Source: a virus. Taken from it: a DNA stretch of 64,000 nt. The stretch lies in IMG/VR virus record IMGVR_UViG_3300025138_000013; one strand, 5' to 3'. The position numbers and the translations under genes are program-made. Of this stretch, positions 12,876-23,480 are shown in pieces; within the stretch, counting starts at the first letter, position 1; every line of letters starts with the position of its first letter. Below the pieces are notes generated by a model. The model saw nothing but the letters and a program-made list of their open reading frames with translations, had not been told where the DNA came from and searched no databases.

Positions 12876-13094
12876 ATGGCAACACAAAATACATTCGTAA
12901 TTGAGTACGGACTTACAGTTGGTTCAACAGAAGTTATTTCCTCTGCAGGAAAACTAGCTGTATCAGCAATATCTTTACTTACTTCAGATAACTTAACGGA
13001 AGGTTCTTCGAACCAATACTTTACTTCAAGTAGATTTAACACTTCATTCGATACTAGATTATCAAATGCAGTTATTGATGGGGGTACAATCTAA
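12876..13094 (+). CDS. Short fibre-associated protein ending IDGGTI
   Basis: TSDNLTEGSSNQYFT motif shared with downstream fibre; SD AAGGA. Confidence 0.65.
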   Translation: MATQNTFVIEYGLTVGSTEVISSAGKLAVSAISLLTSDNLTEGSSNQYFTSSRFNTSFDTRLSNAVIDGGTI

Positions 13095-15985
13095 TGGCAG
13101 GAGAAAAGAATTTTATACTGAAGAACGGTTTATCCGTAGGAACAAATGATGTTCTAGATAGTTCGGGTGACTTAGTAGCAGGTGCATTTGGTACTGCAGC
13201 TATAGAGGTCATCGATGACCACGTTGCAAATACCTTACTAACAGCAGGTGCAGGCATTGGGCTTGCATATGATGACTCTGCTGGAACACTTACAATCACA
13301 GGACAAGTTGGTGATATTACAGGAGTTAACGCAGGACTTGGTTTAACTGGTACTGCAACTAGTGGAGATGCAACATTAAACATTGGTGCTGGTACAGGTA
13401 TTACTGTAAATGCAGATGACATTGCAATCAACTTTAAAGACGAAGATAATATGGCATCAGATAGTGCCGTACATGCAGCTACTCAACAATCAATTAAAGC
13501 ATATGTTGACACTCAAGTTGCAACAGTTCCAGTTGGAGACATAACAAGTGTTGTTGCTGGAGCAGGTTTAACAGGTGGTGGAACAAGTGGTGATGTAACA
13601 GTAAATGCTATTGCTGGAACAGGTATCACAGTTAATGCAGATAGTATTGAAGCTGATATGACTGCAATTAGAGCAAGTATCGATGGTGCAGACCTTGATA
13701 TGAGTGGTAACAAAGTATTATTTGGTAACATGTATGCTCAAGAAGCAGACTTACCAAGTGCAAGTACATATCATGGTATGTTTGCACATGTACATGGAAC
13801 AGGAGCAGGTTATTTTGCTCATGCTGGTGCATGGAAAAAATTACTAGATGAGTCTAGTTCAACAACTGCAAACTTAACAGAAAACACAAACCTGTATTAT
13901 ACAGATGCAAGAGCAGATGCAAGGATTACAAATGCACTTATAGATGAAGACGATTTCTCATCCAATAGTGCTACTAAGATTCCTTCACAACAATCTACAA
14001 AAGCATATATTGCTACACAGATTGCAACTAAAGATAATTCAGACGAAATTACAGAAGGTTCAAGTAACCTTTATCACACCACTGCAAGAGCAAGAGCATC
14101 TATAAGTGCTGGTGGTGACTTAGCATACAACAGTACAACTGGTGTAATGAGTTTCACAAACGATGCTGGAGATATTTCTTCAGTAGTTGCTGGTAACGGT
14201 TTAACTGGTGGTGCAACTACTGGTGACGCAACCTTGACGGTTGGTGCTGGTACAGGTATTACAGTTAACTCAACTAACGTTGCAGTTAATATGGGTGCAT
14301 TTGATTCAGATGACTTAAACGAAGGCTCAACTAATCTATATCACACTACAGAAAGAGTTCAAGATATTGCTGGAGCAATGTTCAGTTCAAATACTGAAAC
14401 AGGTATTGCAGTAACATATGACGATGCAGACGGAACAATAGACCTTGCAGTAGACGCAGAATTTATTTCAGATACAGTTGGTAACATGGTCACTTCTAAT
14501 ACAGAAAGTGGTCTTACAGTTACGTATCAAGATGCAGATAACACTTTAGACTTTGCAGTCGGAACACTTAACCAAGATACAACAGGATTAGCAGGAACTG
14601 CTACAGCACTTGCAAGTGCAAGAACTATCTCGGGTGTTTCATTTGACGGTACAGCAAACATCACACTAAACACTGGTGGAATCACAGAGAGTGGTAACCT
14701 TTACTTTACAAACGAAAGAGTGGATGACAGAGTTAATGCATTAATTGTTGGCGGAACAAACATAACTGCAACATACGATGATTCAGCTGGAACACTTACA
14801 ATTGACGGTAACGCAGCGGACATCACAGGTGTTACAGCTGGAGACGGTTTATCGGGTGGTGGTTCAAGTGGTACAGTTACTTTAAACCTAGATGCTTCAG
14901 TAGCAGGTGACGGTCTTGCACATTCAAGTGGTGTTCTATCAGTCGGAGTAGACGATAGTTCAATCGAAACAAATTCAGATGCATTAAGAGTTAAAGCACT
15001 TGGTGTTACTAATGCCATGTTAGCAGGTTCAATTGCAAACAGTAAACTTGCAAATGACAGTGTAACAATTAACTCACAGTCAGTAGACTTAGGTGCTTCA
15101 GTTACTTTAAACACATCTCACATTGGTGAGAGTGGTAACTTATACTTCACAGATGAAAGAGTTGACGATAGAGTTAACGCTTTAATTACTGCTGGTGTAA
15201 ACGTTGCAACAACATACGATGATTCAGCTGGAACACTAGAAATTAGAGTACCTTACGAAAACATTCAAGACACAGTTGGAACTCAATTTGCTACAAACGG
15301 TTCACACACAAACATAACTGCAACATACGATGATGCTGGTGACGGTGCAATTGACCTTTCAATTACAGATGCAACAATCAGAGCAAAACACTCTGCAGTT
15401 TCAAACGGAATTGGTGGACTAGCATATAGTACTTCGACAGGTGCATATACTTACACAGGGCCTTCTGCAACAGAAGTAAGAGCTCAACTAAGTGGTGGTA
15501 CTGGTGTTGCATACAGTGGTGGTGAATTCAGTATTGGACAGGCAGTTGCAACAACTAGTGATGTTACCTTTGCAGACGTATCTGCAAGTGGTAACCTTGT
15601 AGTTACAGGTAACTTGACAGTTAACGGTTCAACAGTAACAAATAGTTCAACTAACACAACAATCGAAGATTCATTGATTGAGTTAGGAAGTGGAACAACT
15701 GGTTCTCCATCGGGTGACGCAGGTATTGTCATTGAAAGAGGTGATGAAAGTAACGTGTTTATGGGTTGGGACGACAGTGCATCAAGTTTTGCATTCGGAA
15801 CAACTACTGCAACAGGTTCTTCAACTGGTGCATTAACAGTGACACCAGCAGCGGTATCTACAGGTGCATTGACAATAACAAATGCATCCAACAGTGGTGG
15901 AACTGCAAGAAATGTTTACCAATCAACATCGGCTCCAACAGGTGGGCAAGGTGCAGTTGGTGATATGTGGATTCTTTACTCCTAA
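13094..15985 (+). CDS. Long tail fibre protein; putative anchor for zipper cassette 2
   Basis: Repeated GDIT.V.AG.GL.GG..SG..TL and NLY(F/H/Y)T.ER motifs; ends STSAPTGGQGAVGDMWILYS. Confidence 0.8.
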   Translation: MAGEKNFILKNGLSVGTNDVLDSSGDLVAGAFGTAAIEVIDDHVANTLLTAGAGIGLAYDDSAGTLTITGQVGDITGVNAGLGLTGTATSGDATLNIGAGTGITVNADDIAINFKDEDNMASDSAVHAATQQSIKAYVDTQVATVPVGDITSVVAGAGLTGGGTSGDVTVNAIAGTGITVNADSIEADMTAIRASIDGADLDMSGNKVLFGNMYAQEADLPSASTYHGMFAHVHGTGAGYFAHAGAWKKLLDESSSTTANLTENTNLYYTDARADARITNALIDEDDFSSNSATKIPSQQSTKAYIATQIATKDNSDEITEGSSNLYHTTARARASISAGGDLAYNSTTGVMSFTNDAGDISSVVAGNGLTGGATTGDATLTVGAGTGITVNSTNVAVNMGAFDSDDLNEGSTNLYHTTERVQDIAGAMFSSNTETGIAVTYDDADGTIDLAVDAEFISDTVGNMVTSNTESGLTVTYQDADNTLDFAVGTLNQDTTGLAGTATALASARTISGVSFDGTANITLNTGGITESGNLYFTNERVDDRVNALIVGGTNITATYDDSAGTLTIDGNAADITGVTAGDGLSGGGSSGTVTLNLDASVAGDGLAHSSGVLSVGVDDSSIETNSDALRVKALGVTNAMLAGSIANSKLANDSVTINSQSVDLGASVTLNTSHIGESGNLYFTDERVDDRVNALITAGVNVATTYDDSAGTLEIRVPYENIQDTVGTQFATNGSHTNITATYDDAGDGAIDLSITDATIRAKHSAVSNGIGGLAYSTSTGAYTYTGPSATEVRAQLSGGTGVAYSGGEFSIGQAVATTSDVTFADVSASGNLVVTGNLTVNGSTVTNSSTNTTIEDSLIELGSGTTGSPSGDAGIVIERGDESNVFMGWDDSASSFAFGTTTATGSSTGALTVTPAAVSTGALTITNASNSGGTARNVYQSTSAPTGGQGAVGDMWILYS

Positions 15986-16036
15986 TACAGGGGTTTAGAA
16001 TTCTAATAAATAACAGTATTATTAATGGATAACTAA

Positions 16037-17527
16037 ATGGCAACAGGTTCACAAAAGGTCAAAACACCAGCAGGTTGGAATTCAACTCAAGGTGCATGGG
16101 TAAAAACAGCTAGTTCCACATGGAAAGCAGTTGACCAAATCTATATTAAAACTCCTACAGGATGGAATAATGCGTCAGGGCAGACTGCAACTCAAGTTCC
16201 TTACCCATACATTGCAAATGGACAAGAACCCAATATAAGAAACAAACAGAATCCGTATCCTTATATTGCAAATGCACAAGAGCCTAACATAAGGAACAAA
16301 CAGAATCCTTATCCATACATTGCAAATGCACAAGAACCTAATATAAGAAGCCAACAACAACCGTATCCTTATATAGCACAAGCAAGACAACCTAGTACAT
16401 ACCAACATAGAAGTCCATTTACATATAGTAATGTTGGTCAACAACCTACTACTTATCAACATAGGTCACCGTTCACTTATAGGAATCCTGTAAATGCACA
16501 AGAGCCTAATATAAGGAATGCACAAACACCGTTCACTTACAGAAATCCAGTGAATGGACAAGAACCTAATATTAGAGATGCAAGACAGCCTGCAACTTAT
16601 CAACATAGGTCTCCTTTAACATACTCACATAGGTCACCATTTACCTATCAACATAGGTCTCCATTCACATATAGAAATCCAGTGAATGCACAAGAACCTA
16701 ATATTAGAAATGCAAGACAACCTTCTACGTATCAACATAGGTCACCGTTAACATATAGTCATAGAAGTCCTTTAACGTATACTCATAGGTCACCATTTAC
16801 ATATAGAAGTCCTGTATCTGCACAAGAGCCTAACATAAGAGAAGCAAGACAACCTTCTACGTATCAACATAGAAGTCCTTTAACATATAGTCATAGGTCA
16901 CCGTCTATTTACCAACATAGGTCACCATTTACATATAGAAGTCCTGTATCTGCACAAGAACCTAATATTCGTTCTGCACAACAACCGTATCCTTATATTG
17001 CAGCTGCACAACAACCTAATATTCGTGCTGCACAACAACCTACTATTAAGAACCAACAGGAACCTAATATTAGAAATAATCAGGCACCATTTACGTACAA
17101 TCATAGGTCACCGTTCACTTATAGGAATCCTGTATCTGCACAACAACCTAATATTCGTTCTGCACAAGAACCTAATATTAGAAGTTCACAAACACCATTT
17201 ACATATAGTGCAAGGTATCCAGCGAATGCACAGCAACCTTTTACATTCCAAGCACCATTTACGTACAGGAACCCTACTAACGCAAGGCAACCTAACAGTG
17301 CAAGGAACCCATTCACATATAGACAACCTTATATAGCGAATGGAAGACAACCAAATAGTGCAAGGAACCCATTCACATATAGAGTACCGTACATTGCAAA
17401 CGCAAGAACTGGAACACCCGCTAGGTCACCAAGTATTGCACAACAACCCTCAACGTACCAGCACAGAAGTCCATTTACATACTACTTTGCTTACGGTGGC
17501 GGAGGGCAGAATTTTTATGAACCATAA
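16037..17527 (+). CDS. Modular repeat protein 'A' (47 modules, aa 53-476)
   Basis: N-terminal WVKTASSTWKAVDQIYIKTPTGW motif then 424 aa of even-length x-x-P modules. Confidence 0.85.
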   Translation: MATGSQKVKTPAGWNSTQGAWVKTASSTWKAVDQIYIKTPTGWNNASGQTATQVPYPYIANGQEPNIRNKQNPYPYIANAQEPNIRNKQNPYPYIANAQEPNIRSQQQPYPYIAQARQPSTYQHRSPFTYSNVGQQPTTYQHRSPFTYRNPVNAQEPNIRNAQTPFTYRNPVNGQEPNIRDARQPATYQHRSPLTYSHRSPFTYQHRSPFTYRNPVNAQEPNIRNARQPSTYQHRSPLTYSHRSPLTYTHRSPFTYRSPVSAQEPNIREARQPSTYQHRSPLTYSHRSPSIYQHRSPFTYRSPVSAQEPNIRSAQQPYPYIAAAQQPNIRAAQQPTIKNQQEPNIRNNQAPFTYNHRSPFTYRNPVSAQQPNIRSAQEPNIRSSQTPFTYSARYPANAQQPFTFQAPFTYRNPTNARQPNSARNPFTYRQPYIANGRQPNSARNPFTYRVPYIANARTGTPARSPSIAQQPSTYQHRSPFTYYFAYGGGGQNFYEP

Positions 17528-17578
17528 GCTGATGATACATATGAATAGTAATATAAAATTTAACAGGAATAATCTAAG

Positions 17579-18937
17579 ATGCCTATAGGTAATAGACAGC
17601 AACCCGCTAGCAGATTTGCTCAAACATCTGTCAATGTACAGACGCCTTCGATTGTGCAACAACCGTTTACATATAGTGCAAGATATCCAGCGAATGCACA
17701 GCAACCTTTTACATTCCAAGCACCATTTACGTATAATGCTAGATATCCAGCGAATGCACAACAACCGTTCACATTCCAAGCACCATTTACGTATAGGAAC
17801 CCTACTAACGCAAGACAACCAAATAGTGCAAGGAACCCATTTACATATAGACAACCGTACATTGCAAATGCAAGGCAACCTAATTCATACCAACATAGGT
17901 CACCATTTACGTACAGTTATGGGTCTCCATTTACATATAGGGTTCCTGTATCTGCACAAGAACCTAATATTCGTTCTGCAAGACAACCGAGTTCATATCA
18001 ACATAGAAGTCCTTTGACGTATTCACACAGGTCACCGTTTACGTATAGTCATAGGTCACCATTTACGTATGCTAGGCAAGGTCAAACACCGTTTACTTAT
18101 AATCATAGGTCACCATTCACTTACAGAAATCCAGTAAATGCACAAGAACCTAATATTAGAAGCAATCAGCAACCTAACATTAGAAGTCAACAAGAACCTA
18201 ATATTAGAAATGCACAAGCAGCGTTTACATATAACCATAGAAGTCCGTTCACTTATAGGAATCCTGTATCTGCACAAGAGCCTAATATTAGAAACCAACA
18301 AGAACCTAATATAAGAAATCAGCAAGAACCTAATATTAGAAACAATCAAGCACCATTTACGTACAATCATAGGTCACCGTCTACTTATCAGAATCCTAGT
18401 AATGCACAGGAACCTAATATTCGTTCTGCACAACAACCTAATATTAGAAGTCAACAAGAGCCTAATATTAGAAACAATCAGACACCGTTTACGTATAGTC
18501 ATAGGTCACCGTTTACTTATCAGAATCCTAGTAATGCACGTCAACCTTCTACGTATCAACATAGGTCGCCGTTCACTTATAGGAATCCTGTAAATGCACA
18601 AGAGCCTAATATTAGAAACAGAGATACTACATTCCCTTACATCGCAGTAGCCCAAGAACCTAATATAAGGAATGCACAAACACCGTTCACATATCAAAGA
18701 ACTGGTCAGTCACCTGTAATATATTCTCACAGGTCACCATTTACGTATGCTAGACAAGGTCAAACACCAACGACTTATAACCATAGAAGTCCGTTCACGT
18801 ATCAAAGAACTGGTCAAACACCAACGACTTATCAACATAGAAGTCCGTTTACATATAATAGAACTGGTCAAACGCCTGAAGCAAGATGGGATGGAGTGGT
18901 ATCACAACAGTGGCCTGCAACACCAATTACGTCATAG
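17579..18937 (+). CDS. Modular repeat protein 'B' (47 modules, aa 7-430), mirror-complement partner of 16037-17527
   Basis: AGGA SD-like motif upstream; 424 aa repeat region. Confidence 0.85.
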   Translation: MPIGNRQQPASRFAQTSVNVQTPSIVQQPFTYSARYPANAQQPFTFQAPFTYNARYPANAQQPFTFQAPFTYRNPTNARQPNSARNPFTYRQPYIANARQPNSYQHRSPFTYSYGSPFTYRVPVSAQEPNIRSARQPSSYQHRSPLTYSHRSPFTYSHRSPFTYARQGQTPFTYNHRSPFTYRNPVNAQEPNIRSNQQPNIRSQQEPNIRNAQAAFTYNHRSPFTYRNPVSAQEPNIRNQQEPNIRNQQEPNIRNNQAPFTYNHRSPSTYQNPSNAQEPNIRSAQQPNIRSQQEPNIRNNQTPFTYSHRSPFTYQNPSNARQPSTYQHRSPFTYRNPVNAQEPNIRNRDTTFPYIAVAQEPNIRNAQTPFTYQRTGQSPVIYSHRSPFTYARQGQTPTTYNHRSPFTYQRTGQTPTTYQHRSPFTYNRTGQTPEARWDGVVSQQWPATPITS

Positions 18938-19023: not shown

Positions 19024-20601
19024 ATGCAGAAAATTGAAACCCTAGAACAAGCAAAAGAATTAATAAAACCTTACGACCCTAAGATAACCTCACAAGAGAG
19101 ACAGGCCATAGGCAATTTTCATCTAGGTGCATTTAATATAGAACCAGGCTATTCAAAAACCTCAGAAAGTTATAAAATACTTGAATGGATGTTTGAAGAA
19201 ATTTTACCACCAGTAAAGATTGCAAAGTGGAAAGACTTTGAATATCTAAGAAAGGAAAATAGATTTGGTGGGTTCAATGGGTTAAGAAATGAGTCAGTAA
19301 CATATCATAAATTTTTACCAGTCGGTTATGCAGAGAAACCTAGAAAACCTATTCCAGGCGTAGCAGGTATGGACATGAAAGATTCCGATGGATATGTTAA
19401 TATAGATACATTAATTGATTGGGACTCAGTTGAAAACAGAGACGAACATGCAGAAGGGTCACTATTGTCTATGTACTATCACGGTGCAAAAGCACATTGG
19501 TTAATTCAAAGTATTCAAGAGGAAGGTTTAAGAGCTCCTATTCAAGGGTATGTTGTAGATAATGGTTCCAGTGGTATGAGTACTGAATCTAGTTACACAT
19601 TTAGAATACACCCAGGCTCTATTCGTTCGGGTGTCTTTGAAGAGATGCAAGATAATGATATGGAAATTATGGTAATAGATAATTTTGATGTTGTGAAAGT
19701 GGAACCATCAAGCCTTGACAGCGTATTACAGATGTGGTATAATAAGTTACAAAGACTTAATAAACCATTTCATTGTTCATTTACATATGTAGATGGTTGT
19801 ATTGAATACAATACTGCATTAATGGACTTAGATTTTAGAGATGAAGTACATGCATTTAACAAACAAGTTTATGAACTTGCAAAAGGTAAACCTCTAACAA
19901 TCTATATCGGACATGATAGTAGACATGGAGATTTGTCTAAGCTTTCTAAGTTTGCAATCCTAGAAAGTATTAAAAGCGGATTTGGTAATGGATGGATGCA
20001 TGACCAAATCAGATGGCAACCCGAAGTTAAAATACTTGACATTGCTGAGATTCCCGAGTATACTAGAGAATATGCAAATCAAAGTACTGAATTTACATAC
20101 AGTAGATTCTTAATACCTTATCTAGAGAACTATGAAGGATTTAGTATCTTTATTGATGACGATTTCATCTTTAAGAAAAGTATATTACCTATGTTTTATT
20201 ACTTAAACCCTAATGATGCTGTTGCATGTATACAATATCCACAATACAAACATGATGAAACAAAGTTTGATGGTGAAGTTAATATAGATTACCCTAAGAA
20301 GCTTTGGTCTAGTATGATGGTATTCAATAATGGACATGAAGACTGTAAGAAGCTAACACCCGAAGTTGTTAACACTTGGACAGGAAAACAGCTACATCAA
20401 TTTGAGTGGACAGATAAAATCTCTAAAATACCCGAACATTATATCTTTGTAGAAGGATATGATAACCATGAAGAAAAGTACAACTACAGTGGTATACATT
20501 ATACACGTGGTGGCCCATGGGTAAAAGGGATGGATTATTCAACCATAAATAATCTTGAAGACTTTTTAAAAGTGAAAAGAACATTGCCAATTGGCGATTA
20601 G
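19024..20601 (+). CDS. Fusion: N-terminal ParB/Srx-like region + C-terminal GT-A (GT8/CDI-like) glycosyltransferase
   Basis: C-terminal IYIGHD, STEFTYSRFLIPYL, DDDF (DxD), YPKKLWSS, HYTRGGPW; N-terminal SIQEEGLRAPI..HPG..R; late-promoter variant ACTAAATA 18992-18999. Confidence 0.7.
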   Translation: MQKIETLEQAKELIKPYDPKITSQERQAIGNFHLGAFNIEPGYSKTSESYKILEWMFEEILPPVKIAKWKDFEYLRKENRFGGFNGLRNESVTYHKFLPVGYAEKPRKPIPGVAGMDMKDSDGYVNIDTLIDWDSVENRDEHAEGSLLSMYYHGAKAHWLIQSIQEEGLRAPIQGYVVDNGSSGMSTESSYTFRIHPGSIRSGVFEEMQDNDMEIMVIDNFDVVKVEPSSLDSVLQMWYNKLQRLNKPFHCSFTYVDGCIEYNTALMDLDFRDEVHAFNKQVYELAKGKPLTIYIGHDSRHGDLSKLSKFAILESIKSGFGNGWMHDQIRWQPEVKILDIAEIPEYTREYANQSTEFTYSRFLIPYLENYEGFSIFIDDDFIFKKSILPMFYYLNPNDAVACIQYPQYKHDETKFDGEVNIDYPKKLWSSMMVFNNGHEDCKKLTPEVVNTWTGKQLHQFEWTDKISKIPEHYIFVEGYDNHEEKYNYSGIHYTRGGPWVKGMDYSTINNLEDFLKVKRTLPIGD

Positions 20602-21192: not shown

Positions 21193-21897
21193 ATGGATTT
21201 AAACGTTGAGTTAGAGTTCATCAAAGAACCTTTCCATATCAAAGATATGCCTTTGAAAAAAGTATACGTTTTAGACGATTACTTATCTACAACAATGCAT
21301 CATTGTATTGATGATAAAATAACTAGAAATGCTTTTTGGGGAAAAAGTAATCAAGTAAACTCAAACAGTCCTACAGGATTACCTCATCATAGTTTTTGGG
21401 GAGCAGGTTTCTTCAGAGGCCATGACCAAGAAATAGAACATGATATGGAACCCAAAAAAACATATCTTATGAGATGGTTTAATAGAAAGTTACAAACCGA
21501 CTTTGGATTTATGTGGGAGAGATTTCAATACTTTGGTTTGAATTCTCAGACTCAAGGACTAGAGGGAACAACACATGCAGATTGTGAACCTCAAGATGAT
21601 TGGAATCTTTCATTTTTATATTATCCAAATAAATTTTGGAATGATTCTTGGGGGGGTTCTTTAAGAATGTATGATAAAATGCAACAAGGAATACACGGAA
21701 GAGCAGACCATATTAAAAATCATCAAGTTGCAGAAGTGTATTTTAAACCTAATAGATTATTAATATTTGATGGAAGAATACCACATGGTGCAGACGCACC
21801 CAAACCAGCTGCAAAGTATATGGATAGACGTTCTTTGGTTATAAGAGGGGACGAAATTAGTCTAAGGACTTTATGGGGTGAAGATGCCTACGATTGA
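21193..21897 (+). CDS. 2OG-Fe(II) oxygenase (prolyl-hydroxylase-like)
   Basis: H-x-D (THAD), W...WGG.L, PNRL.IFDG.IPH, terminal R. Confidence 0.85.
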   Translation: MDLNVELEFIKEPFHIKDMPLKKVYVLDDYLSTTMHHCIDDKITRNAFWGKSNQVNSNSPTGLPHHSFWGAGFFRGHDQEIEHDMEPKKTYLMRWFNRKLQTDFGFMWERFQYFGLNSQTQGLEGTTHADCEPQDDWNLSFLYYPNKFWNDSWGGSLRMYDKMQQGIHGRADHIKNHQVAEVYFKPNRLLIFDGRIPHGADAPKPAAKYMDRRSLVIRGDEISLRTLWGEDAYD

Positions 21898-22783
21898 ATT
21901 TACATGTTATGATAAAGAAACCACAGAGAATTGGAAACCAGTTCTAGCAAAGAAACTAGTTCCCGATTGGTGGAAGACTATGAAAGTTCAAGAGAATGTT
22001 CGTGGTCATAAAACTCAGACTATAAGGTCATGTCCTGCTATGGATGACTGGTTAAAGACTGGGTGGTATCTTTGTGCAAAGAAAGACATGAAAGTATTTG
22101 TAAGTGAACATTCTAGTAAATCAAGAACAGACCCACAAGACAGACTTTCATCACCAACACATCCAGCTGGACAAGCAGGTCATCAATTTACTTACTTATC
22201 TAAAGAAGATGCACCAACAAAAGATGCATTCAAAATGAAAGCACCATGGAATATTATTACTCCGCCAGGCTATTCTTGTCTATACCTAGACCCCTTTCTA
22301 TTTCAAAATAAGTATTTTGCAACATGGCAAGGTATGATTGATACAGATGCATTTAATGTGAATATGGATAACTCTCAGATTATTTTCTATCCTAAAACGA
22401 ATAAAGACTTTACAATTAAAGCTGGAACACCATTGGTTCAAATCATTCCATACAGAAGAGAAGATTGGACAGCATCATATATAACTTATGACAATAAATC
22501 GTGGCAAGAAAATAGGTCAGTTAGAACTACTCATAGAGTAGGTGAAGATGGTGGTAAGTTAAAAACAATGGATGAGTGGAATAGGTCACCCGAACTTAGA
22601 GAAGAGAAGAGGCATATCGAAGGAATGGCAGGTGCCTATAGAAGAATTAAGTATTGGAATGAGAAGGGAAGAATGTTTAAAGAAGAGAATCCACCACCCG
22701 AGTGTCCTATGCATAATCCCGATTTAGTAGAACATAAAGCAGAAGTGCAGTTGGATTTATTTGGAGACCAAGATGACAGTTAG
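21884..22783 (+). CDS. Conserved phage protein often beside 2OG oxygenases (DUF6065-like)
   Basis: T...CP...D....G, PW.I.TPPGYS, G.IDTD, I.AGTPL.Q.IP motifs. Confidence 0.55.
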   Translation: MPTIEFTCYDKETTENWKPVLAKKLVPDWWKTMKVQENVRGHKTQTIRSCPAMDDWLKTGWYLCAKKDMKVFVSEHSSKSRTDPQDRLSSPTHPAGQAGHQFTYLSKEDAPTKDAFKMKAPWNIITPPGYSCLYLDPFLFQNKYFATWQGMIDTDAFNVNMDNSQIIFYPKTNKDFTIKAGTPLVQIIPYRREDWTASYITYDNKSWQENRSVRTTHRVGEDGGKLKTMDEWNRSPELREEKRHIEGMAGAYRRIKYWNEKGRMFKEENPPPECPMHNPDLVEHKAEVQLDLFGDQDDS

Positions 22784-23480
22784 ATTAGCATTCCCTACAT
22801 TTATATTTGAAAGAGATGTACTTGACAAAAAGTATGGTAATGCTTCAGTATCAAAAGAATACTTAACATCCCTTAAGAATGAGATGGATGCATGGAGACA
22901 AAGAGACCCAAAAGGTAGACAAATATCAAACAGATATACTGGTTGGCAGTCTCAAGATGGTGTAGAAAAACATCCAGCCTTTCAAAAGATTATTAGATGT
23001 ATTGAAGCTGCATTGAGAGATGAAGTGCAACAATTCTTTAGAGTTCATCCCGACGATTCACAAATCAAAATAGATAATACATGGGCAAACATAAATGATA
23101 AAGGTGCATGGAATACACCACATTTACACAATGGTTGTTGGTATAGTGGAGTCTTTTACGTACATGGAGACGGTGATGAAGGTAACCTTCAACTAATCAA
23201 TACAGACCCGAAGGTAGTTGCAGACCATCCTACTAACGCTAGAATGCACGAGAGTATGGGATATGGGCCTGTTACTGGAAGACTTATAATGTTTCCTAGT
23301 GGTGCAATGCATATGGTAGAACCCAATCCTACAGACAAAGAAAGATACTCAATTTCATTCAATTGTAGAGTACAACAAATAACAAATAGTCGTGAAAGAA
23401 GAGACCCTCAAGGGAATCCACCTCATGAGAATGAATTTACTTTTGAATTAGATGAATTAGGCAACCCCACACTGAACTAA
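22773..23480 (+). CDS. 2OG-Fe(II) oxygenase, TIGR02466-like
   Basis: WANIN..G..N.PHLH, SGVFYV, FPS...H.V.PN, R.SISFN; SD GGAG. Confidence 0.85.
   Translation: MTVRLAFPTFIFERDVLDKKYGNASVSKEYLTSLKNEMDAWRQRDPKGRQISNRYTGWQSQDGVEKHPAFQKIIRCIEAALRDEVQQFFRVHPDDSQIKIDNTWANINDKGAWNTPHLHNGCWYSGVFYVHGDGDEGNLQLINTDPKVVADHPTNARMHESMGYGPVTGRLIMFPSGAMHMVEPNPTDKERYSISFNCRVQQITNSRERRDPQGNPPHENEFTFELDELGNPTLN

Follow-up and report, generated by a model that had tools for sequence, protein, structure and literature searches.

A mirror-complementary module code in two adjacent proteins of a marine T4-like phage points to antiparallel, register-locked pairing

Introduction

Opposed, matched segments are shared by several long, thin protein structures, among them the needle of a phage tail fibre, the stalk of streptococcal adhesins and the arms of coiled-coil proteins. 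None of these has a two-class code of proline-headed units divided between two genes. Such a code is described here for two adjacent genes, A (16037..17527, + strand) and B (17579..18937, +), which lie in a 64,000-nucleotide stretch of viral DNA, IMG/VR record IMGVR_UViG_3300025138_000013 (this whole stretch is called the window). Both proteins consist largely of short modules, and the modules of B, read backwards, are the counterparts of those of A.

In the needle at the tip of the T4 long tail fibre (gp37; PDB 2XGF), the polypeptide runs down and back, so that antiparallel extended strands lie along a thin rod. The needle is a trimer in which seven iron atoms are held by histidines along its length (PMC6957217). 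A and B likewise belong to a T4-like fibre module and are proposed to form antiparallel extended strands in a thin rod. Unlike gp37, in which both directions occur within one chain of a homotrimer and the rod is short, A and B are the products of two genes, extend over more than 400 residues and obey a module complementarity rule. No HxH motif, the feature of the gp37 iron sites, is present in A or B, and no similarity to gp37 or any solved fibre was found by phmmer against PDB chains or among Pfam and PHROG fibre families.

The stalks of the streptococcal antigen I/II adhesins SpaP and BspA are more than 50 nm long and consist of intertwined A- and P-domains (PMC7732690). Here too, two distant repeat types pair antiparallel to give a long thin stalk with a terminal domain, and tyrosines interlock in the stalk interface. 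The antigen I/II stalk differs from A and B in that it is intramolecular, combines an alpha-helix with a proline-rich strand, has three or four long repeats of each kind and carries no aperiodic address. A and B are two chains with no Ala-rich helical region and no Pfam match, and the longest stretch free of proline measures 9 residues in A and 15 in B. Prolines recur every 6-10 residues, which excludes long helices, and coiled-coil heptad segments do not occur.

The arms of SMC and Rad50 proteins and heterodimeric coiled coils are alpha-helical, and a code at heptad positions a/d and e/g sets partner and register. A and B have in common with these arms length-matched segments, mirrored discontinuities and a residue code for partner and register, but their units are proline-headed, even in length and beta-prone, and fall into two classes and three lengths. 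Neither protein contains a collagen-like run of four or more G-x-y triplets. Cross-strand pair preferences are known from beta-hairpins such as the tryptophan zippers, and Richardson and Richardson reportedly described in 2002 the protection of edge strands by proline. As in such hairpins, aromatics in A and B would lie opposite small or cationic residues, and outward prolines would block lateral sheet growth. The hairpin motifs, in contrast, are short, designed or local and not two-gene systems of hundreds of residues.

An earlier note on this DNA had named no described protein system with a complementarity code of this kind, and our searches agree with it. A and B have no Pfam, PHROG, NCBIfam or PDB family match. 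Searched with phmmer against all PDB chains, A gave no match at E<=1, and PDB sequence searches of protein C (from a second pair, described below) and of the fibre-like protein encoded upstream of A were likewise empty. A Pfam 'Cementoin' match on A, at 27.4 bits against a cut-off of 27, was judged a low-complexity coincidence. Against public phage genomes, the locus had no megablast match, and tblastn of A returned two spurious low-complexity matches only. Homologues of A and B are all unnamed metagenomic 'hypothetical proteins', and a search of 8.4 million papers for the motifs QEPNIR, RSPFTY, PYPYIA and PFTYRNP found no paper that contains them.

Mirror-complementary modules in A and B

The open reading frame (ORF) of gene A encodes 496 amino acids (aa): an N-terminal anchor domain, a 424-aa repeat region (aa 53-476; 16193..17464, +) and a 20-aa tail. 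That of gene B encodes 452 aa, with a 6-aa head, a 424-aa repeat region (aa 7-430; 17597..18868, +) and a conserved 22-aa tail. Using the module strings of the earlier note, we cut A from aa 53 and B from aa 7 and paired module i of A with module 48-i of B. The cuts end precisely at A476 and B430, giving 47 modules and exactly 424 aa in each protein, as had been claimed. When B is read backwards, its module lengths coincide with those of A at all 47 places. The swap rule put forward for the module types (N with H, P with G, Y with X, F with S, V with V) is obeyed by 44/44 typed pairs; at the ends, three pairs without an assigned type agree in length alone. The repeat region of B is thus the mirror-complement of that of A.

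Every module begins with a head x-x-P, mostly Q/R-x-P. When the 12- and 14-residue types were split at their internal x-x-P, two classes with lengths of 6, 8 and 10 residues were obtained (58 fine tokens in A). The class a body is aromatic, P-[FLST]-[TI]-[YF] ('PFTY'), and the class b body is PNIR, PYIA, PYPYIA, PNxA or PVNA. In these terms the rule reduces to a single statement: a class a module always stands opposite a class b module of equal length. The original types translate as N = b8, H = a8, P = b10, G = a10, F = a6 and S = b6, and the composite types as V = a6+b6 (self-complementary), Y = a8+b6 and X = a6+b8. The nine types first distinguished satisfy all their swap rules but are more than needed, because binary class and length together reproduce every one of these rules.

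The order of the modules, which had been called aperiodic, is so overall, although it includes periodic sub-arrays, namely (PN)x3 and a 44-aa unit HHHVN repeated three times. The three 44-aa super-units of A (aa 183-314; 16583..16978, +) each read a8 a8 a8 a6 b6 b8, and the array of B opposite them (aa 169-300; 18083..18478, +) has the periodicity b8 b8 b8 a8 a6 b6. A also contains a palindromic, self-complementary block (aa 385-436; 17189..17344, +) that reads a8 b6 a6 a6 b6 b6 a6 b8, and its counterpart in B occupies aa 47-98 (17717..17872, +). The block of A recurs in B as a direct DNA repeat, with 87.8% identity in plus/plus orientation (blastn, A nucleotides (nt) 1149-1320 vs B nt 136-306).

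Token alignment of A with B scored 49 for the reverse-complement, compared to 0 for reverse-only, 8 for complement-only and 11 for the direct order. The best of 20,000 shuffles of the B tokens, a permutation test proposed in the earlier note, reached 16, and when B was shuffled as six large blocks, 49 was reached by the native order alone. Since the shuffle scores stay far below 49, chance is excluded as the source of the mirror relation. At the DNA level, A and B share 93 plus/plus high-scoring segment pairs, whereas the minus strand yields none at E<=1e-3. Their identity in mirror register is 22.7% compared to 24.9% for cyclic shifts. The minus-strand null and the 22.7% mirror identity rule out a DNA inverted repeat as the origin, which upholds the claim that the DNA is not one. 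With no opposite-strand segment pairs and a mirror-register identity at the level of shifts, the symmetry exists at the protein level only.

Conservation in related viruses

A scan of IMG/VR yielded 285 related stretches, from which 78 loci were kept; these hold 75 pairs that are complete and adjacent; 52 are distinct, and 46 architectures occur. More than 430 protein clusters carry the A/B family. In every pair the reverse-complement prevailed by far: its scores were 16-65, compared to 0-6 for reverse-only and 1-23 for complement-only, and direct scores (0-15) and shuffled maxima (4-17) also lay far below the reverse-complement. For a parser-free test, a log-odds matrix of facing residues was applied in gapless antiparallel register. 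For 47 of the 52 distinct pairs (B 238-559 aa), a single such register spans 90% or more of B. The register sum equals len(B)+34 in most single-register pairs, so that the end made of the A N-domain and the B C-tail is fixed and length variation falls at the opposite end; the duplex starts at A residue 53-57 in almost all.

Relatives carry 2, 3, 4 or 5 copies of the 44-aa super-unit, with the counterpart number in B. The nearest relative among the virus records searched, about 90% identical to the window in both proteins, has an A of 585 aa and a B of 540 aa, with five plus five super-units compared to three plus three in the window. On a phylogenetic tree of the neighbouring glycosyltransferase, 13 independent sister comparisons involved a change in span. 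The length changes of A and B were exactly equal in six of them (-16, -88, +24, -180, +92 and -78 aa); the remaining ones were mostly near-equal, with differences that stem from parser end points.

In three IMG/VR contigs (L010, L012 and L024), which account for three of the five pairs outside single-register coverage, the counts of A and B disagree by one or two 44-aa units. These contigs are elsewhere 99.6-100% identical to matched relatives, and the mismatch suggests short-read assembly collapse of the 132-nt tandem repeat or very recent slippage. The 3+3 and 5+5 super-unit states, in contrast, are about 10% diverged. At L065 A is truncated, and small internal differences are seen at L067, L076, L058 and L062.

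Covariation and register of facing residues

A second layer of the code lies within the classes. Among distinct pairs, a8 modules ending in H/Y stand opposite PxIR in 284 cases vs 15, and those ending in N/A stand opposite PYIA in 125 vs 3. Subtypes match position by position within single mixed proteins, with 777 of 843 pairs concordant; 5,000 shuffles within loci averaged 601 and reached at most 627. Between facing modules, mutual information is highest at a4:b8 (0.91 bit, with 0.17 as the null maximum) and comes to 0.73 at a8:b4; 10-mers have their peak at a4:b10 (0.71). The facing residues compensate for size: F4 stands opposite A/G, L4 opposite Q, S/T4 opposite R/N/Q/K, G10 opposite Y4 (103/108), A/N8 opposite Y4 and H/Y8 opposite N4. 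Odd variants are mirrored as well, RNPVGY being found opposite RQPAGY and the 4-residue unit RSPY opposite QQSA.

This covariation follows i+j = L+4, so that position 4 of one module lies across from the final residue of the partner module, with the bodies flush and the x-x-P heads facing. A flush module-to-module register was rejected, as the covariation indicates a three-residue shift. In the window, A(x) stands opposite B(486-x). All modules are even in length and every proline therefore keeps one parity; in register 486 all 117 repeat-region prolines (62 in A and 55 in B) have an odd index. Proline is opposite R or Q in 112/119 cases, an aromatic is opposite another aromatic in none of the 111 positions with F/Y/W, and the commonest facing pairs are P:Q/R, F:A, Y:R, T:N, H:N and E:S. 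An even register sum and a single proline parity are what a continuous two-stranded antiparallel sheet would require, with its prolines non-hydrogen-bonded and pointing outward.

Partner choice between two pairs in one genome

A second mirror-complementary pair in the window, C/D (5323..8240, +), is paralogous to A/B and shares its module alphabet. C (5323-7068) has 581 aa and D (7068-8240) has 390 aa. Partner choice was scored with a matrix trained on 20 distant pairs, from which the close relatives of the window were excluded and none of which came from the C/D lineage. A x B scored 627 bits at register 486 (runner-up 191) and C x D 369 bits (runner-up 129). Non-cognate and self combinations gave 89-205 bits and parallel alignments at most 36 bits. 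As A x B and C x D top all combinations, each chain matches its own neighbour best. The 205 bits belong to A x C, which have complementary super-units in common, and for this reason cross-talk between A and C over part of their length is possible.

The ends of the C/D duplex also carry domains. The C-terminus of D is a 56-aa hairpin-repeat domain, located at the same duplex end as the N-domain of A but on the opposite chain. C has a globular C-terminal domain of about 230 aa at the duplex end away from the hairpin domain of D; compared with the ESM Atlas, it gave no score >=0.9, and no family was recognised for it. A fibre-like gene (3685-5316) precedes the pair.

Proposed arrangement and alternative explanations

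Taken together, the mirrored compensatory changes, the subtype matching and the size-compensating facing residues lend strong comparative support to the antiparallel, register-locked pairing of A and B that the earlier note had proposed. A and B are probably two antiparallel, register-locked chains of one elongated heteromeric fibre. We infer that the chains touch, are extended in beta conformation, combine at a 1:1 ratio and serve as an appendage for host recognition. The simple two-stranded beta-ribbon heterodimer of about 140 nm on the virion, as proposed in that note, is putative.

In such a fibre, A and B would lie side by side with opposite polarity over the whole of their 424-residue repeat regions. 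Each module would contribute a Q/R-x-P head and a body; class a bodies would pack opposite class b bodies of equal length, and the heads would face each other with proline opposite Q/R. A two-stranded antiparallel sheet would set all prolines in non-hydrogen-bonded, outward-facing positions. The aperiodic module order would serve as an address, allowing one register and favouring the cognate partner over the second pair in the genome. The N-domain of A and the C-tail of B would mark the probable attachment end, and the C-terminus of A and the N-terminus of B the opposite one.

Several points weigh against this arrangement. The binding of A to B is proposed from sequence comparison, and 5 of the 52 distinct pairs fall outside single-register coverage. 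Duplicated super-units are inherited together, so that the covariation is partly inflated, its events are not fully independent and the register could be off by one or two residues. ESMFold2 and AlphaFold2 (AF2) yielded no confident structural model, and their runs speak neither for nor against binding. Complex prediction of A aa 1-182 with B aa 301-452, run on shallow alignments, gave an ipSAE (interaction prediction score from aligned errors) of 0.00 in both runs and a partner pLDDT (predicted local distance difference test) <50. AF2 gave a mean pLDDT of 34 and no secondary structure for a tethered single sequence of the hairpin end (P0121; window 17081-17980, five stops read as Gly). A bare duplex would have a net charge of about +72 and may need counter-charges or modification. 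We know of no precedent for a two-stranded ribbon of 424 residues, so that a higher-order bundle such as (AB)3 may be needed. Pelagibacter phage HTVC008M has no B homologue and no cultured phage is known to carry the pair; consequently, it is gene context alone that points to a place on the virion.

It is unlikely, though worth weighing, that one of the chains, B or A, acts as a stoichiometric chaperone or assembly template of full length, which would lie antiparallel to its partner during folding and be absent from the finished virion. The same mirror-complement and covariation would result, and dedicated chaperones such as T4 gp38 and gp57A are often encoded beside phage fibres. However, the fibre chaperones known so far are short proteins that act at the tip rather than over a span of hundreds of residues. 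Moreover, conserved terminal domains are found on both chains at one duplex end, and in C/D the anchor-like hairpin domain belongs to the other chain (the C-terminus of D), which suggests that both chains are structural.

Somewhat less probable again is an arrangement in which A and B make no mutual contact and each runs, with opposite polarity, along a third component such as the upstream fibre-like protein (13094..15985, +; 963 aa). The length of this protein does rise with that of B (r = 0.82 over 33 non-redundant loci, uncorrected for phylogeny), and the four-gene order fibre, A, B, glycosyltransferase is conserved across loci. A shared template, however, predicts the same module type at mirrored positions and not the opposite type. 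It also fails to predict the size-compensating covariation of A and B, and no matching module pattern was found in the upstream fibre.

We consider it very improbable that each chain mainly folds back or homo-oligomerises and that the A/B mirror is secondary. Both chains do contain the self-complementary block, and A x A reaches 181 bits in antiparallel alignment; yet self scores of 121-181 bits compare with 627 for A x B, and self-complementarity does not extend beyond the palindromic block in either chain (reverse-complement token scores 14 and 12 vs 49). An artefact of tandem repetition, chance or an ancient inverted DNA duplication is hardly credible and is refuted by the shuffles, the DNA comparison and the single register kept among relatives. 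Stretches of A and B do repeat periodically, and reversing a periodic series of lengths trivially gives the same pattern, but the mirror relation also covers the non-periodic blocks. Shuffles never come near the observed score and the rule recurs in 46 architectures; minus-strand DNA similarity is absent, and reverse-complementing the DNA of an a-module does not yield the code for a b-module.

A and B may form a sequence-addressed protein duplex, in which partner and register are written in the module order in a manner akin to nucleic-acid hybridisation. We consider this reading about as likely as not. The alphabet of such a duplex would be small: two classes of module in three or four lengths, plus subtypes as a further layer. 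Recognition would extend over more than 400 residues. Several orthogonal duplexes could coexist in one virion, with lengths tuned by matched insertions, as a natural programmable beta-type alternative to coiled coils. If the chains pair as predicted, this would be, to our knowledge, the first natural case in which a simple, legible modular code sets specificity and register over hundreds of residues of extended, non-helical chain. Such a system would represent a new fibre architecture and a natural rule set for the design of long orthogonal beta-type heterodimers, and would give a handle on an abundant unannotated part of the host-recognition cluster in marine T4-like phages. The natural variants are a ready set of compensatory 'mutants' for testing the code.

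Gene context of the locus

The source phage is a T4-like marine myovirus, with a sheath protein 49% identical to that of HTVC008M. The A/B locus belongs to the structural/host-recognition module; fibre-like genes flank it on one side, and genes for the neck (gp13/14-like), gp15 and the sheath on the other. The corresponding region has been called the host recognition cluster in pelagimyophages (PMC7029224).

The non-repeat N-terminal domain of A (aa 1-52; 16037..16192, +) contains three K-T-P-x-G-W-like hairpin motifs, and invariant columns in the family alignment indicate that it is kept family-wide. The C-terminal tail of B (18869..18934, +) has the motif R-W-D-G ... W-P-x-T-P, also conserved across the family alignment. 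The 52-aa domain of A and the 22-aa tail of B fall at one common duplex end. At the other end, the C-terminal tail of A (17465..17527 with the stop codon, +) has 20 residues and ends in GGGGQNFYEP.

In many A homologues a Hint/intein-like domain follows right after the Gly run; the A of the window lacks it and has the 20-residue tail only. This domain is positioned at the duplex end adjoining the N-terminus of B. It shows the motifs G-G-G|C-F, T-G-G-H-P and a terminal H-N, with Cys1 and a T-x-x-H block, and its Pfam E-values of 5e-8 to 2e-4 are below gathering scores. Carriers are the A homologues L033, L041, L069, L075 and L085 and the proteins P0001, P0007 and P0012. The domain could self-cleave or ligate the C-terminus of A to something.

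A and B are separated by a spacer of 51 nt (17528..17578, +). Its five in-frame stops rule out a read-through A-B fusion, and the frames also differ in relative G001. A search for fused A-B homologues of 869-2480 aa came back empty, a weak piece of evidence. A and B are strongly basic, with K+R-D-E values of +39 and +33, respectively; Tyr, Arg, Gln, Asn and Pro are abundant in both, and B contains no lysine.

The upstream fibre-like protein has PHROG tail-fibre and structural matches. Its gene precedes A in all loci examined, and it ends in an invariable C-terminal motif, G-A-V-G-D-[LM]-W-[IV]-[LY]-Y-[SA]. The fibre before C/D ends in the similar V-G-H-L-W-F-V-V.

Immediately 3' of B lies the gene for a GT-A/GT8-like glycosyltransferase of 525 aa (19024..20601, +), and the position after B is taken by a protein of 504-553 aa in 67 of the 74 loci with room for it. 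The AF2 model of the downstream protein (pLDDT 85.8) matched WbbM, XXYLT1, LgtC, UGGT, GlyE and glycogenin in Foldseek, which indicates a GT-A/GT8-like fold. Solved relatives thus include the protein-modifying enzymes XXYLT1, UGGT, GlyE and glycogenin, and the modelled enzyme might modify A and B, or the fibre, instead of host lipopolysaccharide. Further downstream are two 2-oxoglutarate (2OG)-Fe(II) oxygenase genes, at 21193-21897 (PF13640) and 22761-23480 (PF13759/TIGR02466). The PF13640 family includes prolyl 4-hydroxylases. The presence of 2OG-Fe(II) oxygenases beside proteins with a proline every 6-10 residues raises the idea that A and B may be hydroxylated at proline.

A+T-rich motifs resembling the T4 late promoter TATAAATA are found upstream of both genes: TAATAAATA about 25 nt 5' of the A start (16003-16012) and TAATATAAAAT 5' of the B start (17547-17557). 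A and B may each have their own late promoter.

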